A program made the position numbers and the translations under genes. The notes beneath the pieces were generated by a model. It saw only the letters and a program-made list of their open reading frames with translations, searched no databases and was not told the DNA's origin. 64,000 nucleotides of DNA from a virus. Where the stretch lies: IMG/VR virus record IMGVR_UViG_3300033998_000095, positions 48,007 through 112,006 of that record; one strand, written 5' to 3'. Position 1 is the stretch's first letter, and each line of letters begins with the position of its first letter. Of the stretch, positions 7,911 to 50,555 are shown piece by piece.

Positions 7911-9644
7911 TTATATTAAAGTATCTATATCAACTTTCCATAAATCCTCTGTTTCCTCTTCATCAGTTGTGACTACTTCTTGCTCTTCTTCATTAATATC
8001 TTGAGTATTAACTGAAACTTTATACTTAGCTAATTTAACTGTGCTAGGATCTTCATCGAATATGATACTAATCCTCTCTGGAATATCAAACATTCTACAA
8101 ACAGTATAATCAATCCTCATTAAAAATCTTATATTGCTAGGACCATCTCTATTTTTATCTATAATACCCCAAACTTCTTTATAGTTCTTATAGTTATCTG
8201 TATTGTTTAATATATCATCCACATCTAATGTATTATAATCAATTACAGTTTCTTCAACTTTAGAGAAATCAAATAGAACTAATACATCAGCATTTTCTCT
8301 CTTCCTAATAGAGCCAGCTATTTTATCTCCTTTTATGTTTTCACCATATCCACTTCTATTTACCTGTGTAACAGTTACAACAGGGATATTAAATTCAACA
8401 CTCATGGCTTTTAAATCATCTACAATCTTTCCTAGATCTATCCATTCTTGTCCAGTCTTACTCTCTGTGGTTGCTGCCAATTTATCAGCATAATCTATAA
8501 ATACTATCTTTATTTTAGTACCATATGTGCGTTCAATATCATTTATTAATGACATAATATCAAAAGTATTAATTGATCCAGGTGATCTCCATACTATGAA
8601 TATTTCAGTACTATTTGGCTTGACAAATACCTGATCATATTTTTCTTTCACATAATTATAGTTGTTTAATCTATAAGATGATTCAAATTCATGTTTGGCT
8701 ATTCCAGTGGCACAACTTACAAATCTTGCCTGTGTTTCCTCTTTACCATTTTCTAATGTTAAATACAATACACCCCATTTTTCTGATTCAGGTATATTGT
8801 CCAACTTTCTTCTTTCATCAAGAGATATCTTAGCAGTGTAAGCTAAATTAATTAATACTAGAGATTTACCTCCACCAGAAATACCTCCCATAATGTAAAC
8901 CCTTCCATTTTCAAAGCCACCATTAAAAGCATAATCAAATACTTTGTATCTAGTGGGTATATGCTCTTTATTAAGTTCTTGGAGAATATAATCTTCAAAA
9001 TTAGAAGTAGAAAGACTTAGAATATCTCCTCTTGATAATTCACTTATTTTAGTTTTGACTACAGTCTCATCTATAATCTTATTAAAGATGCTCATATATT
9101 CATCTAAATCTTTACATGTCTTGTAATCTTTAATGATGAAATTCATTAGCACTTGATGTTGTTCAAATATATTAAATAAACATTTCCTATATGTAAATTT
9201 CTCTTCAATAAGATTAATGACATCCATGGAAAGAACATCTTGAGCTACACAATATCTGGAAAGAATTTCGTTTTGAATAGATGCTAATCTTGAATCTGAT
9301 TGGAGTATCTTTTTGAAATCCTCTAAACATATATCTCCATCTATATACTTCTTTCTACTATCTATGCATTTATCAAGGATATTGACTGTAGCTGAAGCTA
9401 TATCATCAAAAGCCAAAAATTTAATATTATATTCCTTTTCCTTTGATTTAATCATATTGATAAAGGTCTTGAATTCTTTGGCCAAAAGGGAAGCTATCTC
9501 CATAACATCTTTATCTGGTTTCTTACCAAAAGCACATCTAGTATAATATGCTACAAACTCATTACCCATAAATACTTTATCTGTTTCTATTATTCTTTTC
9601 AGTTCTTGAAACAACATATCTGGTGATATATTATCAGTAATCAT
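7911..9644 (-). CDS. Replicative DnaB-family helicase (T4 gp41-like)
   Basis: Walker A GISGGGKS, LTLEN, IDYAD, TVTQVNR and DKNRDG motifs. Confidence 0.92.
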   Translation of the reverse strand: MITDNISPDMLFQELKRIIETDKVFMGNEFVAYYTRCAFGKKPDKDVMEIASLLAKEFKTFINMIKSKEKEYNIKFLAFDDIASATVNILDKCIDSRKKYIDGDICLEDFKKILQSDSRLASIQNEILSRYCVAQDVLSMDVINLIEEKFTYRKCLFNIFEQHQVLMNFIIKDYKTCKDLDEYMSIFNKIIDETVVKTKISELSRGDILSLSTSNFEDYILQELNKEHIPTRYKVFDYAFNGGFENGRVYIMGGISGGGKSLVLINLAYTAKISLDERRKLDNIPESEKWGVLYLTLENGKEETQARFVSCATGIAKHEFESSYRLNNYNYVKEKYDQVFVKPNSTEIFIVWRSPGSINTFDIMSLINDIERTYGTKIKIVFIDYADKLAATTESKTGQEWIDLGKIVDDLKAMSVEFNIPVVTVTQVNRSGYGENIKGDKIAGSIRKRENADVLVLFDFSKVEETVIDYNTLDVDDILNNTDNYKNYKEVWGIIDKNRDGPSNIRFLMRIDYTVCRMFDIPERISIIFDEDPSTVKLAKYKVSVNTQDINEEEQEVVTTDEEETEDLWKVDIDTLI

Positions 9645-9677: not shown

Positions 9678-10667
9678 TTACCAAGTTAAATTATCCATAT
9701 GATCAATATTAATTCCAAATATATCTATAATTGGTTCTAGTCTCTTATAAATTGCAATATCAAGCATGGCATCTATATCTGGATAAAAAATAGAGGTATC
9801 TAAATTAACTCCTTCAGGTACTGTAATAACATCAATCTGATCGTTTTTAATTAGCAAACCCTCAACACGCATTTGCTTTAATTTCTTATCATAATCTTTG
9901 ATCTTGCTACCATCTACTTTACTTATAGTAAATGTATATCCTCTATCTCCTTCATAAAAGGTAGGACCATATATGACATTGTATATTTTCATGCCTCTTA
10001 TAGTCTTTGTCAATACTTTATATTCTCTAGCACCCCATCCACCAGGAACTCCTAAAGTATAATCACCAGCCATAAGTCTGGTTTTATATTCATCTATATA
10101 TTTGTCTATTAGATTTAAAATTTGAAAAGAGCTGTATTCTTCTCTTAATATCTTATCTATAACATCTTGTAACATCTGTTTAGTAAACCTTGGGAAATCT
10201 GCTCTAACCACCTCCATACCAGTGATACTTAGATTATCTATTTTCTTTCCTTCTTTGTTGATGATCCATAATGCATACTTCTTCTTTGCATCTAAGAACA
10301 TAGCTCTCTTAATAACTAATTCCTCTTTAAATGTAAAGTTATATTTAGTGGCAAGCTCAGAATCACCAGCATTATGCCTTTTAAGCATTTCAGGAATGAT
10401 ATATTTATTAATATATTCAGAACAATTTCTAACAATCTTTAAAGTGGTTTCTGTCTTTTCATCTTCACTTATTGAATCATATTTATCACCATATAATGAC
10501 TTGAGCACTGGTTCAATAAAGAGAAACATTGAGTCAGTATTATGTACTAAAATGTCATTAGCAAAAAACATATGGTTATTATCAACTTCAATATCATATA
10601 CATACTCTGGTACATTATTTTCAATTTTCTCAACAGATGCTATTCTTTCCTTTACTATAGGCATCAT
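9678..10667 (-). CDS. Family B DNA polymerase, C-terminal fragment preceded by a split-intein C part
   Basis: YVYDIEV..NHMFFANDILVHN|TDSMF, then KKKYA and ITGMEVVRAD PolB motifs; own RBS GGGGGT. Confidence 0.95.
   Translation of the reverse strand: MMPIVKERIASVEKIENNVPEYVYDIEVDNNHMFFANDILVHNTDSMFLFIEPVLKSLYGDKYDSISEDEKTETTLKIVRNCSEYINKYIIPEMLKRHNAGDSELATKYNFTFKEELVIKRAMFLDAKKKYALWIINKEGKKIDNLSITGMEVVRADFPRFTKQMLQDVIDKILREEYSSFQILNLIDKYIDEYKTRLMAGDYTLGVPGGWGAREYKVLTKTIRGMKIYNVIYGPTFYEGDRGYTFTISKVDGSKIKDYDKKLKQMRVEGLLIKNDQIDVITVPEGVNLDTSIFYPDIDAMLDIAIYKRLEPIIDIFGINIDHMDNLTW
10539..10667 (-). other. Split intein C fragment (43 aa, blocks F/G, ends His-Asn, +1 Thr)
   Basis: VYDIEV and FFANDILVHN motifs. 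Confidence 0.95.
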
Positions 10668-10834
10668 CTAGTACCCCCTATTCAAAATATCCATATATAT
10701 TATTATAATGATATGGAGTAAAATCCATATCGATCATATAGCATTGCCACAGCAGAACCACCAGGCTCCCTAAATAATATATCACATCAGGAGATATATA
10801 TCTCCAAATATTTTTTAACTGTCTTTGTGGATTA

Positions 10835-10863: not shown

Positions 10864-10905
10864 GCATATTAATATTAATAATCTCTTTAATGATATAAAA
10901 ATTTA

Positions 10906-10929
10906 CATATATATTATTATAATGAAAGA
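10906..10929 (+). promoter_or_regulatory. Repeated promoter motif CATATATATTATTATAATGAAAGA
   Basis: Identical 24-mer at 50532-50555 and a 20-mer copy at 10692-10711; contains TATAAT. Confidence 0.6.
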
Positions 10930-10999
10930 AGAAGTTTGTAGCTGTGTTTTACAGGCTTTTTCTTTCAAATATTTTTTTTACTTTTAGGGGGGTATTATT

Positions 11000-11218
11000 A
11001 TGTTTAAGGTTGTAATTGAATCTTTATTTAATGATAGGTATGGGAAAGGTAAAAGGAAAGAATTCGTAGTATTAAGTAAAGCAGTTGCTATTCAAAAAGC
11101 AACTGCATTTAGTAAGCATTCTTGTGTAGAAGTTATCGATCACCATAAACAATGTATTGCTTATGGAGATCCAGTAGTAGGATTCAAGGAGATTGAGAGT
11201 TATGAGCACAATTTGTAA
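11000..11218 (+). CDS. Small hypothetical protein
   Basis: RBS GGGGGGT; first gene after the repeated promoter motif. Confidence 0.65.
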   Translation: MFKVVIESLFNDRYGKGKRKEFVVLSKAVAIQKATAFSKHSCVEVIDHHKQCIAYGDPVVGFKEIESYEHNL

Positions 11219-11534
11219 GATATATAAAGCAGTACTGTCAACTACAGTACTGCCAAATGATGGAATTTATCAGGTAAGAACTCTTGAAACCTTACCTGAT
11301 ATCACAGGGGTGCCTCATTATATAGGACACCCTGCAACAAAAGCAATTGTAGAACAGCTTGGAGCAGTTGAAGCTTCCTCCAAGCTGTTCCAAGGATTAG
11401 ATGTTGGAGAAGCAGCTGTATGCTTTGCCATCAAGCAAGGGAGAAGTACTAGAAAGGATGAAGGGTTCACAACTCCTCATCAAGAAGTTAGCATTGATGA
11501 TCTTTCTGTAAGAGAGATCATCAGATTAGAGTAA
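11193..11534 (+). CDS. DUF1874/YddF-family protein (AcrIII-1-like cA4 ring nuclease); likely start ATG ~11202
   Basis: ~110 aa; AVLSTTVL..DGIYQV, YIGHPAT, AVCFAI..R...EG and C-terminal IIRLE align by eye with the YddF/B116 family. Confidence 0.7.
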   Translation: MRVMSTICKIYKAVLSTTVLPNDGIYQVRTLETLPDITGVPHYIGHPATKAIVEQLGAVEASSKLFQGLDVGEAAVCFAIKQGRSTRKDEGFTTPHQEVSIDDLSVREIIRLE

Positions 11535-11540
11535 TAGAAA

Positions 11541-11576
11541 ATGGAAATGATCTGAGAATACTCAGGTCATTTCCAT
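11541..11576 (+). terminator. Hairpin terminator
   Basis: ATGGAAATGATCTGAG/CTCAGGTCATTTCCAT stem. Confidence 0.7.
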
Positions 11577-11600
11577 AAATACATAATTAAGAATAAGGAG

Positions 11601-12110
11601 ATGATAGTGATGATATCAATGAAAAGGTTAACAAAATTATTTGTTTTATCTTTTATTATAAGCTACTTCTGTATAAATACAGGATTAGCATATGGGAATA
11701 ATCTACATTTAGGAACAATTCCAAATGTAGATTATAAAATAGCTGAAAATAATGGTAATAATACTATCACCATCAATGAAAGTGGCTCATCTAACATTGA
11801 TGTAATATTAGATGAGTATGGTGATGTTTGTTTTAATATCAAAAAGATAAATCTCTATTTTACTGCAAATATATTTGCTGTATTAGATATCCTAACACAG
11901 CTTGATGTTATTGAACCAGGTACATATAGAAATATGATTTTGGATGACAATGGAGTGACATTTGAAGTTGGTGTTAGCTCTGTGAAAAAAGATAACGTCA
12001 TGATGTGCATTAGTAATCAAGATATATCACTAATTCTAGACATTAAAACACCTAAACAGTTTCAATGTCTAGAAGATATAGAAAACAATATTCGCTCCTT
12101 ATTTAAATGA
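11601..12110 (+). CDS. Exported/membrane hypothetical protein
   Basis: Signal-peptide-like N-terminus (MKRLTKLFVLSFII...GLA). Confidence 0.6.
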   Translation: MIVMISMKRLTKLFVLSFIISYFCINTGLAYGNNLHLGTIPNVDYKIAENNGNNTITINESGSSNIDVILDEYGDVCFNIKKINLYFTANIFAVLDILTQLDVIEPGTYRNMILDDNGVTFEVGVSSVKKDNVMMCISNQDISLILDIKTPKQFQCLEDIENNIRSLFK

Positions 12111-12116
12111 ATAGAT

Positions 12117-12159
12117 AAAGATATCAAGCGTGATTAAACGAATCACGCTTGATATCTTT
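12117..12159. terminator. Bidirectional terminator between the cassette and the PolB N half
   Basis: Perfect 19-bp stem with A/T tails. Confidence 0.8.
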
Positions 12160-12187
12160 TATTTAAGTAATATATTTCACTATATAT

Positions 12188-15100
12188 TTATTTTTGGTTT
12201 GTCAATACAAGATCAGAATCCAATATTTCATTTGGTTTAACTTGCATTAATTGTCCATCTCTCTCAATCATAATAGAATGGTCTTCAGTTACAATTAATT
12301 CTTTTCCACTTTCAGTTCTAATTCTATACATTGGTTTATTAACTTTATGTCGTGATATATTATTTATTGATCTATATACAGCATCAGAATCTTCATATGT
12401 AAGTACTTTGTCATTTGCAAAGATATATTCTCTTCCTATATAATTCATAAGTTTGTATTCCTTATGCCTTTCAAATAGATCTTTGATTGGTATACCTTCT
12501 GGATATTGTTCAGTATTTATTTTTGTATTTTCATCAACAGAATCACCATATACTATATTCTCCAGTACATCAGCATCGAGAAATCTTGTATCAAATTCAT
12601 ATGGTTCAATATCCATCTTGTGAGCATCTCTCATTTTATTTAAATACTGATGAATATGATATGCACCCATTGTTACTATTTCTCTTCCAGATGCAGTTAT
12701 AGTCTCTGCAGATGGAAAATGAAACAGTCTAAAATATTGATTAGCAATTCCACCATATAGTGAGTTAGTAAGAACCTTATAAGTAAATTGCCAGTTATTA
12801 TATCTTTCTGCTAACATATGATTATTATTCTCAATAGCTTTAAACATTTCATTTTTATATCGTTTACGTTCTCTAATAAGCATATCTATAATTTCATAAT
12901 AAACTGACAATTTCGTGTTATGATTGACATACATTGTACCCATTATTGTTATTATCAAATTGTGTTTCGTTATAGTCTCATGCAATTTCTGTACTGTTAT
13001 CTGTTTAACATTTAAGTTCTTATCTTCATAATTAATAAGTCTATCTGGTTGAGGTAATAATTCATCTCTATTATAGATATACTCACGAGCTATATATTCA
13101 TCTACCTTACCAACATAGGTGTCAATAGAAATATTATATCGTGCAATGATATATGGATACAGAGAAGAAAGATCCAAATCAGCCAACCAGTTATATAATC
13201 CTTTTAATGGTTTTCTTACAAAAGCACCTTTAAGCTTTTCTGTTTCCTGATCATTATCTTTATCATATTCATATTTTTTACATATAACTGTCTTATTTTG
13301 TTTATCCAATGTTGTAAATAGAATACCATCTATAATTGGAAGTGTGCTGAATGATTCCTCCCAACTGATGTTGGTAGCTCTTATAATGTTAAATTGAATA
13401 TCAATATATTTAAGTTTATTGTCCAACTTTCTAACAAGATGAACATCATTAATATTATAAGCAATGAATCTATTGGGATCTGATAACCACATATCATCAA
13501 ATCGTTTGTCAAGAGACAATTTCTTTATACCAAGTTCGAATTCAGCAATAAATCCAAGTGTATATGATTCTCTTTTACTGAATGTTCTTTTCTTATACAA
13601 TGTTAAATAATCACATTCCACGACATATGGAATGTATGGTTTATTAGTTCTCTCATTAATAAAAATACGACCATATTTGTTTTTACATTCTATTCCAAGA
13701 TATTGTGATCTATTAATAATAATTGGCCAGTCAAATGCTGATGAGTTCCATCCTGTTACAAGATCAGGATCTATTTCATCAAATTTTTGAATAAACCCGT
13801 TCAACATCTTTCTCTCATCATTATATACAAATATTTCAATATTACATTCGTCTTTATATTCAAGATGTTTGATTATTTCTTGTTTATCAATGTTCAAATT
13901 GAATGAGTTGTTTATAAATGTATAATAAGTATCAGTATAGTTATCATACAGGGTTATCAACGATATAGCATATCTCTTTGCAGCTGCCATCATGTCATCA
14001 AGAAGCATCATATTGCCATTGAGAAACAATTCGATATCTATAGCAGCAATTCTTAATGGTTGTTCAGTCTCAGTATAAGTATTTCTAAACTGAATATTCT
14101 TATATACTGATAGATTCATATCTCCAAAGACATTAAACCCTTTACTCTTCAAATCATTTATTACATTTACTCTATCTTTAAACTGTATAACCTTGAGCTT
14201 TAGTTTATCCTTGTATTCAACAGTATTATTTGATTTACCATAATATAGAGCATATTTATCATCTGTAGTATGAATTATTTTATCTTGTCCTCTTCTTAAT
14301 ATATAATTAACTTCAGATTTAAGATAATTGTATACTGTATTGACTAACATTATATTATCTGATGTATTACTTGTGGTATCAGTATCACTCTTATTGTCAT
14401 TAACTGTTTCATATTTAGTATTGTTAGGAATAGGAAATAACTTCCTCACATCATCAGTAGTATAAGACATATGTGGTTGAACATTATCTTTTGATTCTAC
14501 AGCATATCTTATTTGTTTTAACCTATTAGCAAAAATATCGTATCTGGACATATTTCTGCATATTGCTGATGGATGAATACATGGCAATAATAGATGATCA
14601 TTATATTTATATATCTTTGTCATAGCATCAGTTATCTTATCTGTTATACCAAATCTACTACATGGATAATTACCAAGTGGAACTATAACAGCATCAGCAG
14701 GTAATTTAGAAATGATTAACTCTAGATTGTCAAAACAATATGCTATCTCATCTTTCATTGGTGGGTTTGATGGTTGATGAAAACATAAACAAACATTCAT
14801 AACACCCCAATGAATATCATTAAAACCAGTATTATCTAATGTTTGTCTTAATAACTGTCCTGCACGTCCAACAAAGGGTTTTCCTTCTTTAATTTCATTG
14901 ACAGCTGGTGCTTCTCCAACAAATAATACTTTAACTTGAGATATATCATTTGTTGTAAAATCAAAAATAGTTCTTTGTATATCATCTTTATTATTAGATT
15001 TGCATAATGCACATTGTGTAATGAGTCTCTTTTCTATCTCATCTTTCAATGGAGAGATAGTATCTATAGTATCTTCAACATTGCAAGAAACAATAGATTC

Positions 15101-15478
15101 TTGATTAAGATTTTCAGTATTATTATTTTTTGTCAATGTAAGATATGTTTTAATATCTTCTTCTGATAAATAGGGATGTTGGTGTTTTAATTGATTTATT
15201 TCATCAGTAACTTTCTTTGATTTGTTTGACATATATTGTATCTGTTTAGATCTATTAATATTTCTGTGAAATTCAGATAATTTATCAAAAGGTACATTTC
15301 GTGCAAGTATAGGATTAGTATTAATTAACTGATCTAAGTATATACAAGATAACACATCATCTTCAGATATATTTAATATCGTAGATATATTAAGTTGTTT
15401 AACTGAATCATCCAATGAATCAGTCTTATGTTGTATATAATAAATGTATTTAGTTAGTGGTGATAACTCTTTTGCCAT
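12188..15478 (-). CDS. UDG family 4-PolB (exonuclease and palm N part)-split intein N fusion
   Basis: UDG: CALC, VGEAP, PFVGRAG, HPSA. Exonuclease: DIE, GWNSSAFD, YNIND. Polymerase: DLSSLYP, KVLTNSLYG, YGD. Followed by intein SVDENT...TEDHS. Confidence 0.95.
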   Translation of the reverse strand: MAKELSPLTKYIYYIQHKTDSLDDSVKQLNISTILNISEDDVLSCIYLDQLINTNPILARNVPFDKLSEFHRNINRSKQIQYMSNKSKKVTDEINQLKHQHPYLSEEDIKTYLTLTKNNNTENLNQESIVSCNVEDTIDTISPLKDEIEKRLITQCALCKSNNKDDIQRTIFDFTTNDISQVKVLFVGEAPAVNEIKEGKPFVGRAGQLLRQTLDNTGFNDIHWGVMNVCLCFHQPSNPPMKDEIAYCFDNLELIISKLPADAVIVPLGNYPCSRFGITDKITDAMTKIYKYNDHLLLPCIHPSAICRNMSRYDIFANRLKQIRYAVESKDNVQPHMSYTTDDVRKLFPIPNNTKYETVNDNKSDTDTTSNTSDNIMLVNTVYNYLKSEVNYILRRGQDKIIHTTDDKYALYYGKSNNTVEYKDKLKLKVIQFKDRVNVINDLKSKGFNVFGDMNLSVYKNIQFRNTYTETEQPLRIAAIDIELFLNGNMMLLDDMMAAAKRYAISLITLYDNYTDTYYTFINNSFNLNIDKQEIIKHLEYKDECNIEIFVYNDERKMLNGFIQKFDEIDPDLVTGWNSSAFDWPIIINRSQYLGIECKNKYGRIFINERTNKPYIPYVVECDYLTLYKKRTFSKRESYTLGFIAEFELGIKKLSLDKRFDDMWLSDPNRFIAYNINDVHLVRKLDNKLKYIDIQFNIIRATNISWEESFSTLPIIDGILFTTLDKQNKTVICKKYEYDKDNDQETEKLKGAFVRKPLKGLYNWLADLDLSSLYPYIIARYNISIDTYVGKVDEYIAREYIYNRDELLPQPDRLINYEDKNLNVKQITVQKLHETITKHNLIITIMGTMYVNHNTKLSVYYEIIDMLIRERKRYKNEMFKAIENNNHMLAERYNNWQFTYKVLTNSLYGGIANQYFRLFHFPSAETITASGREIVTMGAYHIHQYLNKMRDAHKMDIEPYEFDTRFLDADVLENIVYGDSVDENTKINTEQYPEGIPIKDLFERHKEYKLMNYIGREYIFANDKVLTYEDSDAVYRSINNISRHKVNKPMYRIRTESGKELIVTEDHSIMIERDGQLMQVKPNEILDSDLVLTNQK
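12191..12541 (-). other. Split intein N fragment (117 aa, Ser1, block B TEDH)
   Basis: Begins right after YGD; contains LIVTEDHSIM; ends at the stop codon. Confidence 0.93.
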
Positions 15479-15557: not shown

Positions 15558-16823
15558 CTACAAGTGGGAGATGAATTGCCAATTATTGTTATGATTTATG
15601 AACTCTATATGCTTAAAACTAACTTGTTTATAAGATTTATTTGGTATAGTGATATAATTACCTTCTATATCTTGTATATATGCACCACCATTAGTAAAGC
15701 CTGTTATAAAACCAACTTTACCAAATACCTTCACTTTATCATTAAGATAAAAGCCATTTCTATATTTAGTGTTTTTACTGTTTCTTTTTTGAGTTCGATT
15801 TGGTTCTTTTCTACCTTTTCTTGGTATTGCTTCATGTAAACTACGCTTCTTTTTTCTAAATTGCTTTATTTTGAAGTAGTTGTCTGGATTATGCTTTATA
15901 CTTTCTATTCCTGTTATAGCTATCGCATCATTATAATGAGTTTTTTCTAAGCCTAATTCTTTTCTTCTTATAGTTGTATAACTGCCATAGACTATATTGG
16001 CTTCTGGGTATTTTTCAAAAACTCTACGTCTTATAATGTTCATTAATGGAGTTTCTTTATAACTTGGCATCTTTTTCTTTTCCATCATCCATTTGTAAAA
16101 TATGCCACCTTCTTGATGATTTTTATGTGTATGACAATCTGTGCAAACTGTTATTAAATTACTTGGTCTATCTGTACCACCTTTAGACTTATATACTATG
16201 TGGTGAGTTTGCAAAATCTTGCCTTTCTTCTTACATACTTGACAAGTATAATTATCTCTTGCAAATACATAATATCTCACATCATAGTAACCATAAGTTT
16301 CCCCTTGCTGGTATTCTACACCTTCTATGTCTGGATTCATCATTTTTTGAACATCAAATTTGCCTACTTCAATGCACAACTTAGGGCTTGGCAGTAAATT
16401 TATAAAGTTGTCTATCCATCTAAATGTATTATCAATTCTACTTTGAATTGAAGGTGGTAGCCAATCTTCTGGTCTCTTTCGGTTATTAAATCTAGGTTTT
16501 CTATATTTAGTTTTTCTATATCTCCTACTTCTACGATACTGCCTTCTTATATCTAAATTTTTCTTTACATCATTTCTTAGTTCAATTTCTCCTTTTATAA
16601 GAACTTTATCTTCACTTGTTACTGCTATTCCTATGTGTTTAGAGCCTAAATCTACACCTAAAGTTACAGGTTGTTTATAGCCACTACTTCCGTATAAAAG
16701 CTGAATTGTAAAAGGTTTATAACTAATTATCTTAGCTTTCTTTTGTTGTAGTAATTTTCTAGCTTTACTAGGTTTACATGGCATTAAATTTTCACCATGC
16801 TTATTTTTTACGAACACTAACAT
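15558..16823 (-). CDS. iscB: RNA-guided endonuclease IscB
   Basis: NLMPC (PLMP), RuvC-I GVDLG, Arg-rich bridge helix, WLPPS, RuvC-II IEVGKFD, HNH (THHIV...SNLITVC..CH), RuvC-III HYNDA. Confidence 0.95.
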   Translation of the reverse strand: MLVFVKNKHGENLMPCKPSKARKLLQQKKAKIISYKPFTIQLLYGSSGYKQPVTLGVDLGSKHIGIAVTSEDKVLIKGEIELRNDVKKNLDIRRQYRRSRRYRKTKYRKPRFNNRKRPEDWLPPSIQSRIDNTFRWIDNFINLLPSPKLCIEVGKFDVQKMMNPDIEGVEYQQGETYGYYDVRYYVFARDNYTCQVCKKKGKILQTHHIVYKSKGGTDRPSNLITVCTDCHTHKNHQEGGIFYKWMMEKKKMPSYKETPLMNIIRRRVFEKYPEANIVYGSYTTIRRKELGLEKTHYNDAIAITGIESIKHNPDNYFKIKQFRKKKRSLHEAIPRKGRKEPNRTQKRNSKNTKYRNGFYLNDKVKVFGKVGFITGFTNGGAYIQDIEGNYITIPNKSYKQVSFKHIEFINHNNNWQFISHL

Positions 16824-42422: not shown

Positions 42423-43808
42423 ATGGGGGTTAATCCAATTATGATCAAAAATAATAATTTTATCTTGGACATGTTTTATACTTCAGAATTAGATAGCGTG
42501 GATGCTCAAAAGTTAGTACTGTTTAATGATGCTGATGTATTATGGTTTTATGAACAAGTAGAGTTTAATGGTACTATAATGTATAGAGTTCCACGCTATT
42601 ATTTTACTGATAAACAGGCTACAGATCTAACTACACATGGTGAAGATATTGATTTAAAAATTAAATCAGATTATGCTCCTCAAAGTGAAGCTCAAAGGTT
42701 AGCAATAGAAGCCATAGTTAATAATGATCATGGTTTAATAGCAGCTAAGGTTGGTTTTGGAAAAACATATGTTGCTATAGATGCTATATCTAGAATCAAA
42801 AAGAAGGCATTGATTGTAGTCAATAAAACAGCACTTATAGATCAGTGGATTGAGAGAATAATCCAATTTACATCTCTCACTGCTGATGATATTGGTATCA
42901 TATCTGGCAGAAAGCAAGAATTTAATAAACCCATTTGTATTGCTACTGTTCAGACTCTATTTAGAAGAGTTAAAAACGAAGATAAAGCCTTTATTAAAAG
43001 TATGTATGAAGCTAATTTTGGTGTTACCTTTTATGATGAATGCCATATAACAGCAGCAGCTCCAACATTTTCAACAAGTATTAAGACTATATTCTCTAAA
43101 AGACTATATGGATTGTCTGCTACGCCATATAGATCAGATGGTCTTGGACAATTATTGAATTGGTTTATAGGCCCAATTATATTTGATGATAGTAAGTTAA
43201 ATGTTCCTGTATATGTTGGACTAGTAGACATACCATTGTATATATCTCAAGGATATAAGAAGTATATTGAGTGGTCTAATGACAACAGCATAATAACACG
43301 CTATTGTAAGTTTCTTAAGAAACAGGATGTTTATATACGTCAGATAGCTAAGACAATAGATGATTTAATAAAATTAGATTTACAAATTTTAGGATTGAGT
43401 GCAATGATAGATCTTTTGTATATGATATATGATAAATGTCAATATAAACATAAGATATCTATAGTACATTCTTCTGTAGAGGAAAAAGATTATTCTAAAC
43501 AATGTATACTAGCTACATATGGAATGTTTAAAGAAGGAATGGATGTTCCACGTTTGAATACTTTAATTTATATAACTCCTATAACTAATAAGAACAGTTT
43601 AATGCAAAGCATAGGGAGAATCAGTAGATATACATCTGCAGATAAAAAGGCGTTTGTAATAGATATAGTTAATAGTGAATATGAACCATTGAAGAAGATG
43701 AGAGAATATAGGCTTCGCTATTACAAACAATTTGGATTTAAATATGTTAATGCTGATCTGGATAATATAGATAAGTTTATAGAGTATGCACGAGGAGGTA
43801 TTATATAA
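42423..43808 (+). CDS. uvsW: SF2 helicase (UvsW-like)
   Basis: GFGKT, DECH, GLSATP, EGMDVP, QSIGRISR. Confidence 0.85.
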   Translation: MGVNPIMIKNNNFILDMFYTSELDSVDAQKLVLFNDADVLWFYEQVEFNGTIMYRVPRYYFTDKQATDLTTHGEDIDLKIKSDYAPQSEAQRLAIEAIVNNDHGLIAAKVGFGKTYVAIDAISRIKKKALIVVNKTALIDQWIERIIQFTSLTADDIGIISGRKQEFNKPICIATVQTLFRRVKNEDKAFIKSMYEANFGVTFYDECHITAAAPTFSTSIKTIFSKRLYGLSATPYRSDGLGQLLNWFIGPIIFDDSKLNVPVYVGLVDIPLYISQGYKKYIEWSNDNSIITRYCKFLKKQDVYIRQIAKTIDDLIKLDLQILGLSAMIDLLYMIYDKCQYKHKISIVHSSVEEKDYSKQCILATYGMFKEGMDVPRLNTLIYITPITNKNSLMQSIGRISRYTSADKKAFVIDIVNSEYEPLKKMREYRLRYYKQFGFKYVNADLDNIDKFIEYARGGII

Positions 43809-50531: not shown

Positions 50532-50555
50532 CATATATATTATTATAATGAAAGA
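50532..50555 (+). promoter_or_regulatory. Second full copy of the repeated promoter motif
   Basis: Identical to 10906-10929. Confidence 0.6.

Follow-up and report, generated by a model that had tools for sequence, protein, structure and literature searches.

Of the means by which viruses counter cyclic-oligoadenylate signalling, AcrIII-1 is the best known, and cyclic tetra-adenylate (cA4) is the alarm signal of type III CRISPR. The AcrIII-1/Crn2 ring nucleases are characterised by an absolutely conserved His in a G-H motif as general acid (H495 in Crn2), by an Arg and a Glu on the lid loop (the Glu being E88 in gp29 and E536 in Crn2), by a homodimer that buries cA4 at its interface and by cleavage of cA4 to A2>P that needs no metal. 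SIRV1 gp29 uses H47 as its general acid and R85 to lock the lid, with N8, S11, N13, S49, T50, R66 and Q81 in contact with cA4. In Crn2, the substitutions N451A, H495A, R514A and E536A each markedly diminish activity, N451 being equivalent to gp29 N8. The AcrIII-1 protein of Thermoanaerobacterium phage THSA-485A abolishes cA4-based immunity experimentally (bioRxiv 10.1101/778746). Together with the bacterial DUF1874 group (PF08960, including YddF of B. subtilis ICEBs1), this protein resembles the one described here in its fold, its length of about 100 amino acids, its GH(x)DT motif, its Q-x4-R-x2-E-G lid motif and its carriage by phages and mobile elements. Here we examined the relative encoded in the window (the whole 64,000-nucleotide stretch that was analysed), which belongs to an IMG/VR virus record of 112 kb with an estimated completeness of 41%.

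The gene is a plus-strand ORF that a first-pass annotation, made from the letters alone, had placed at 11193-11534 with a product of about 110 residues. The ORF is there, with two candidate starts, TTG at 11193 and ATG at 11202. The sequence makes the ATG the likelier start and the TTG unlikely, because a Shine-Dalgarno sequence, AAGGAG, lies ten bases before the ATG (11184-11189, plus strand) and because close homologues begin MST. The coding sequence would then run from 11202 to 11534 on the plus strand, with the stop codon (11532-11534) included, and yield 110 amino acids. YIGHPAT, AVCFAI and a C-terminal IIRLE can all be read in the product, as first described; the string then written 'AVCFAI..R...EG' was approximate and in fact reads AVCFAI-KQG-R-ST-R-KD-EG. 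The AAGGAG falls inside the 3′ end of an upstream 72-aa ORF (11000-11218, plus strand; no family match, found only in two close relatives), whose stop codon (11216-11218) lies within the first codons of the DUF1874-like gene; this arrangement makes translational coupling possible, and translation of the gene may be coupled to that of the smaller ORF.

We regard the ORF as a genuine gene and no chance frame, judging by its conservation and composition. A word-indexed search at E≤0.01 yielded 104 clusters of homologues, most of them 60-70% identical, and a filter-free profile search of 1.84 billion representatives returned 122 clusters at the 50% level. Codon changes relative to a 92%-identical sibling phage comprise 14 synonymous and 8 non-synonymous differences. 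The gene has a GC content of 0.40 against 0.29 in its surroundings, and it is GC-richer than its flanks in almost every other locus too. The excess resides in codon positions 1 and 2 and spares position 3, and therefore reflects constrained amino-acid composition. Recent horizontal import as the source of the GC bump was ruled out, since GC3 of the gene (0.27) is near that of the genome (0.16-0.30) and the bump recurs in almost every locus. In two other loci, L022 from a Saccharibacteria MAG (8001-8336; gene GC 0.57, locus 0.32) and L024 (158-481; gene GC 0.68, locus 0.43), the contrast is seemingly beyond what amino-acid composition alone needs.

The protein gave no match in Pfam, NCBIfam or PHROGs. 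The first-pass annotation had called it DUF1874 and proposed a search with the corresponding HMM; the PF08960 model itself did not match it at E≤1. When 36 family members were scanned with this model (gathering cut-off 26 bits), one of the 36 homologues, P0081, lay above the cut-off with 28.6 bits, P0075 scored 16.9 bits and one further sequence matched at E≤1; P0094 had no match on re-scan. Searches of PDB sequences with phmmer and with the family profile found no DUF1874 match and returned only chance FeoB matches at E of about 1, and the ESM Atlas held no usable match for the DUF1874-like protein or for orf169, the ORF downstream of it. Polyubiquitin profile matches of two members (P0221 and P0223) were rejected as false positives. 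Profile-profile comparison gave a much stronger link to the bacterial than to the archaeal proteins: hhalign aligned the family to the bacterial DUF1874 group built around THSA-485A with 90.7% probability (E 1.3e-6, 85 columns) and to the archaeal gp29 group with 15% probability. BLASTP linked the 110-aa protein directly to a PF08960 member (99 bits against that model) in locus L019, with E 5e-11 and 29% identity over 109 residues. This L019 protein (7995-8312, plus strand) is a bona fide PF08960 protein that bears the sister clade's N-terminal TTVLPNDGLY; in the tree it branches off basally on the canonical side, and it is a natural intermediate between both branches.

The predicted structure agrees with these links. 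An AlphaFold (AF2) single-chain model built on the family alignment reached pLDDT 89 and pTM 0.80, and it has the characteristic alpha/beta fold of the DUF1874 superfamily. The only Foldseek matches in the PDB with a probability of at least 0.85 were Csx1-Crn2, SIRV1 ORF114/AcrIII-1, AFV3-109 and B116, the next E-values exceeding 2. VIA-align gave Z scores of 8.8, 8.4, 8.3, 7.2 and 6.3 to all solved DUF1874 family members over 90-103 residues; the first three cover 95-103 of the 110 residues and the next best score was 2.4. In an unbiased scan of 48,161 representative PDB chains, DUF1874 chains were the only ones above Z 2.5. The best structural match is the Crn2 domain of Marinitoga Csx1-Crn2 (8Y7F, 8Y7G) in its cA4-bound form (Z 8.8, 103 residues), a domain joined to a CARF-HEPN effector within a type III locus, whereas the 110-aa protein stands alone. 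The archaeal virus proteins SIRV1 gp29 (2X4I, 6SCF), STIV B116 (2J85) and AFV3-109 (2J6B) share the fold at Z 8.4, 7.2, 6.3 and 8.3, with 12-15% sequence identity to the 110-aa protein. Among viral models, the THSA-485A protein ranked second (E 0.012, probability 1.00).

That the protein is a homologue of DUF1874/AcrIII-1/Crn2 is well supported by fold, profile-profile alignment and BLASTP. In a maximum-likelihood tree with 29 rows in the query clade and 24 canonical archaeal and bacterial DUF1874 rows, a branch with SH-aLRT 100 parts the two sets. Since the strict PF08960 cut-off is missed while homology, fold and the fully supported split all hold, we place the protein in a sister branch of the DUF1874 superfamily, outside Pfam's PF08960 model. 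The original identification as DUF1874 accordingly stands in the wider sense given by fold, hhalign and BLASTP, and fails for strict membership of PF08960. The sister branch has no characterised member among its tree rows, and standard profiles are blind to it, so surveys of anti-type-III genes undercount it.

The residues on which catalysis depends in the known enzymes can be followed into this branch. The histidine of the GH motif had been taken as catalytic, and its position fits this: the Gly42-His43 codons (11325-11330, plus strand) specify an invariant GH motif whose His43 corresponds in the alignments to catalytic H47 in SIRV1 gp29 and to H40, likewise invariant, in the THSA-485A group. 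G42 and H43 are invariant in 36 of 36 sequences. All distant clade members inspected keep H43 (the preceding Gly is Thr in P0227), along with the lid Arg and the Gly that follows it. No other histidine is retained throughout the wider clade, distant members having lost H39 and H93. Further correspondences to gp29 are T46 (T50), R84 (R85), E87 (E88), G88 (G89), K61 (R66) and S13 (S11), and Q79 aligns with Q74 of the THSA group; H47, T50, R85, E88 and G89 of gp29 thus all have counterparts. Within the family, the invariant or nearly invariant residues include S13, T14, T15, G21, Y23, G36, P38, H39, G42, H43, P44, T46, K47, L62, F63, G65, Q79, R84, G88, H93 and Q94; of the lid residues, R84 is invariant, the E87 position varies among D, E, N and Q, and G88 is nearly invariant (at least 90%). 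The first-pass annotation had described the spacing around the Arg/Glu region as divergent. This did not hold for the bacterial proteins, as the hhalign alignment gives the motif Q79-x4-R84-x2-E87-G88 a spacing identical to that of bacterial DUF1874; it differs from the archaeal gp29 group only, the gp29 lid being four residues shorter.

The true differences from the known enzymes appear instead to lie in the N-terminal NAFS motif and in the Asn/Arg pair for the scissile phosphate. Where the known enzymes have NAFS(L/I)(Q/N)ML, the 110-aa protein has AVLSTTVLP; more generally, bacterial DUF1874 NAFSLQML contrasts with (A/I)VLSTTVLPxDGxY in the query clade, NR with (S/T)K, and GGRLPEG with (K/R)STRxxxG. 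The phosphate-binding Arg (R66 of gp29, R514 of Crn2) aligns with Lys61 here, and N8, Q81 and S49 of gp29 appear unconserved. At the site of the scissile-phosphate Asn there is a Ser-Thr-Thr cluster. At the N terminus the alignment can shift by one to three residues and its register is uncertain; hhalign places the invariant A10 at the position of gp29 N8, while BLASTP via L019 places S13 there. The clade has invariant residues of its own, namely P38, Y40 and K47, and in the query subgroup also H39 and P92-H93-Q94; from such clade-own invariants the sequences hint at a rebuilt pocket.

On balance we favour, with somewhat better than even confidence, His43-dependent cleavage of cA4 by a dimer, acting as an anti-type-III CRISPR device. 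The protein would form a homodimer with cA4 at the dimer interface and cut it to A2>P without metal. In this scheme His43 would supply the general acid. The lid-loop residues Arg84 and Glu87 would shut over the bound cA4 and set the histidine in place, and Lys61, together with the cluster Ser13/Thr14/Thr15, would bind the phosphates. cA4-activated type III CRISPR effectors would thereby be switched off during infection, the gene being expressed, as we envisage it, from the short plus-strand cassette that lies between the two parts of a split-intein PolB gene. The first-pass interpretation was right on family resemblance and is probably right on function.

The changed pocket could also be read as the mark of a different substrate, the same fold and chemistry serving to degrade or sequester another ligand such as cA3, cA5, cA6, or a CBASS-type or other cyclic oligonucleotide. 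The apparent replacement of N8 by Ala and of R66 by Lys, the loss of Q81 and the clade-own invariants would fit such a change, as would the long, fully supported branch between the clade and every assayed enzyme, and the literature describes other ring nucleases with broad specificity. However, the cA4-specific bacterial DUF1874 proteins have exactly this catalytic His, this lid Arg and Glu-Gly, and this Q-x4-R-x2-EG spacing, and all DUF1874 enzymes assayed so far are cA4-specific (bioRxiv 10.1101/778746), so that we hold another ligand to be rather unlikely. A third reading is that the protein is a non-catalytic or moonlighting relative, which binds a host protein or soaks up ligand and has no anti-CRISPR effect in real infections. 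The precedent is SIRV2 gp37, a true DUF1874 protein that showed no anti-CRISPR action in native infection and inhibits a host lysine methyltransferase (bioRxiv 10.1101/2023.01.10.523387); the scissile-phosphate Asn moreover has no identical counterpart here, and the sequences are very highly conserved among phages whose hosts are unrelated. Against this, the general-acid His persists without exception down to the most distant members, where other histidines go, as is expected of a catalytic residue, and we think a non-catalytic role very unlikely. If the branch does act as we propose on cA4, the range of the cA4-degrading counter-defence strategy is wider than known members suggest. The changed phosphate-binding residues also provide a natural experiment on the contribution of the Asn/Arg pair, or else a route to new substrate specificity.

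The distribution of the family also separates it from the CRISPR-locus enzymes. Members are carried by 17 IMG/VR viral loci and by two cultured phages, of Parageobacillus and Moorella, but among 185,579 species genomes just 7 contain one. The hosts of the phages in which the branch occurs extend from Firmicutes to candidate Saccharibacteria and Gammaproteobacteria MAGs. Neighbours in the other loci include integrases, resolvases, RusA, ERF, RecT, HNH and RNR, and there was no cas family among the 25 most frequent neighbour families (of 78 matched). No conserved gene partner was found outside two sibling phages, the gene otherwise travelling alone. The carriage by a phage that had been proposed at the outset is thus seen in the virus record itself and in relatives from phages, viral contigs and mobile elements, and the gene is of the viral or mobile-element type (AcrIII-1) as opposed to the CRISPR-locus Crn2. 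Homology, fold, the kept His, Arg and Glu-Gly, and carriage by phages are what the analysis establishes. A Pfam scan of ten fused or long family members detected no CARF or HEPN domain. Several members (P0196; P0015, P0044, P0031 and P0098) have a fusion to a WDGH domain (PF25311) or Cys-rich, zinc-ribbon-like N- or C-terminal extensions.

As regards the host, which the first-pass annotation had supposed probably to have cA4-signalling type III CRISPR, the phage's replicative helicase shares no more than 24-30% identity with the helicases of large Firmicutes phages. A Cas10 search of the one MAG that holds a sibling contig gave no match, which is uninformative as to the phage host, and the same search of five MAGs holding relatives gave one weak 55-bit match that is equally uninformative. 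The latter, Cas10/Csm1-like in the palm region, lies on a 121-kb Firmicutes MAG contig about 45 kb from a clade member (locus L028, contig C33 of G002, 42446-43102).

The gene sits in a three-gene plus-strand cassette between two minus-strand pieces of a family B polymerase. This polymerase, which has an N-terminal UDG domain, is split at an intein, with its halves on separate ORFs 1.5 kb apart: 12188-15478 (minus strand) encodes the UDG, the PolB exonuclease and the N-terminal part of the polymerase followed by the N-terminal intein splicing half, and 9678-10667 (minus strand) encodes the C-terminal splicing half followed by the C-terminal part of PolB. Two sibling contigs have the same layout of split polymerase and cassette. 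Besides the 72-aa ORF and the DUF1874-like gene, the cassette holds orf169 (11601-12110, plus strand; likely start ATG 11619), a 169-aa orphan with a hydrophobic N-terminal segment for which the AF2 model was unusable (pLDDT 34). Just before the cassette, at 10898-10977 (plus strand), a promoter-like 28-mer that contains a perfect TATAAT is followed by an 18-bp hairpin and a T-run, and a second copy of this unit lies at 10684-10816. The promoter-like sequence CATATATATTATTATAATGA, with its perfect TATAAT, occurs in three exact plus-strand copies (10692-10711, 10906-10925 and 50532-50551) where 0.39 are expected by chance, and two of the three head short units that end in a hairpin and then CAAATATTTTTT. 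Adjoining the polymerase gene is a 421-aa ORF (window 15558-16823, minus strand) with RRXRR (E 2e-66) and HNH matches, an IscB-like nuclease of the OMEGA type.

The coding sequence of the DUF1874-like gene is dense in hairpins. It folds at -111 kcal/mol against -79 ± 5 for dinucleotide shuffles (z -5.8 to -6.9), compared with z of -2.8 to +1.9 for 42 control tiles from 17 other genes of the window. The first 333 nt of orf169 have a z of -6.3, and the upstream orf72, at -1.7, is within the control range. The structured zone covers the whole insert between the polymerase halves and consists of many near-perfect hairpins of 10-19 bp with short loops. Four lie inside the DUF1874-like gene on the plus strand, with perfect stems of 10 bp (11229-11253), 11 bp (11268-11301) and 13 bp (11352-11390) and a 13-bp stem of 92% complementarity (11495-11523); in the second of these, all three differences from the relative L003 fall in the loop. 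Directly 3′ of the stop codon is a 16-bp hairpin (11541-11576, plus strand; -23.9 kcal/mol, z -7.1), which has no U-run on the plus strand and is followed by TTTTCT on the minus strand, and a 19-bp perfect hairpin (12117-12159, not assigned to a strand) closes the cassette. Rfam gave only sub-threshold noise on the cassette.

The feature recurs in the family. Homologous coding sequences from other loci had z of -3.8 or lower in 13 of 21 cases, down to -9.9. Hairpin-dense islands (z -4 to -10), comprising the gene and co-oriented small genes in otherwise ordinary phage DNA, are found at 10880-12200 of the window and in L015 (7900-8400), L017 (7700-8500), L005 (7300-8300) and L027 (1399-2863). 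With protein and codon usage both held fixed, the native sequences kept a stability advantage of 2.8-6.8 SD in 11 of 11 tests, which locates the signal in synonymous choices. Hairpin positions are common to a subgroup of seven closer homologues; in this subgroup the RNAalifold covariation term is unfavourable, and double changes at 12 of 76 pairs do not amount to convincing covariation.

These hairpins may, with low confidence, reflect selection for a long-lived or nuclease-resistant transcript. In its full form the idea is that phage ring-nuclease genes and their co-transcribed small genes have a hairpin-dense code, selected synonymously, by which anti-defence mRNA would survive or escape the collateral RNases of Csm6/Csx1 type that cOA activates, or RNA-guided complexes; we put this forward tentatively and consider it quite unlikely as it stands. 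In the papers searched we found no link between ring-nuclease genes and structured mRNA. Hairpins that have nothing to do with mRNA protection could arise as a DNA-level feature of a mobile cassette in recombination or replication, from a mutational bias that perfects quasi-palindromes, or as a means of hiding a widely shared gene from RNA-guided targeting. Such origins would fit z-scores that are alike on both strands in the window, hairpin positions that differ in distant homologues, and a cassette located where an intein is split, in a stretch that has several mobile elements. Yet in 10 of 13 homologues folding is stronger for the sense than for the antisense strand, and long stems contain more G-U pairs (77 vs 43), a sense-strand excess that hints weakly at RNA-level selection; and in both L015 and L017 it is the gene, and not the element ends, with which the structured zone coincides. 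We hold these alternative origins to be highly improbable. If the code was instead selected for a protected transcript, it offers a new idea on how counter-defence genes are expressed under attack, and, were that reading true, an RNA-level layer of counter-defence would lie atop the enzymatic one of the protein. Among the described relatives, the DUF1874 gene of THSA-485A and its neighbours have z of -3.0, -4.7 and -7.2, and the archaeal SIRV1 gp29 gene has a z of +1.7, with no excess structure.
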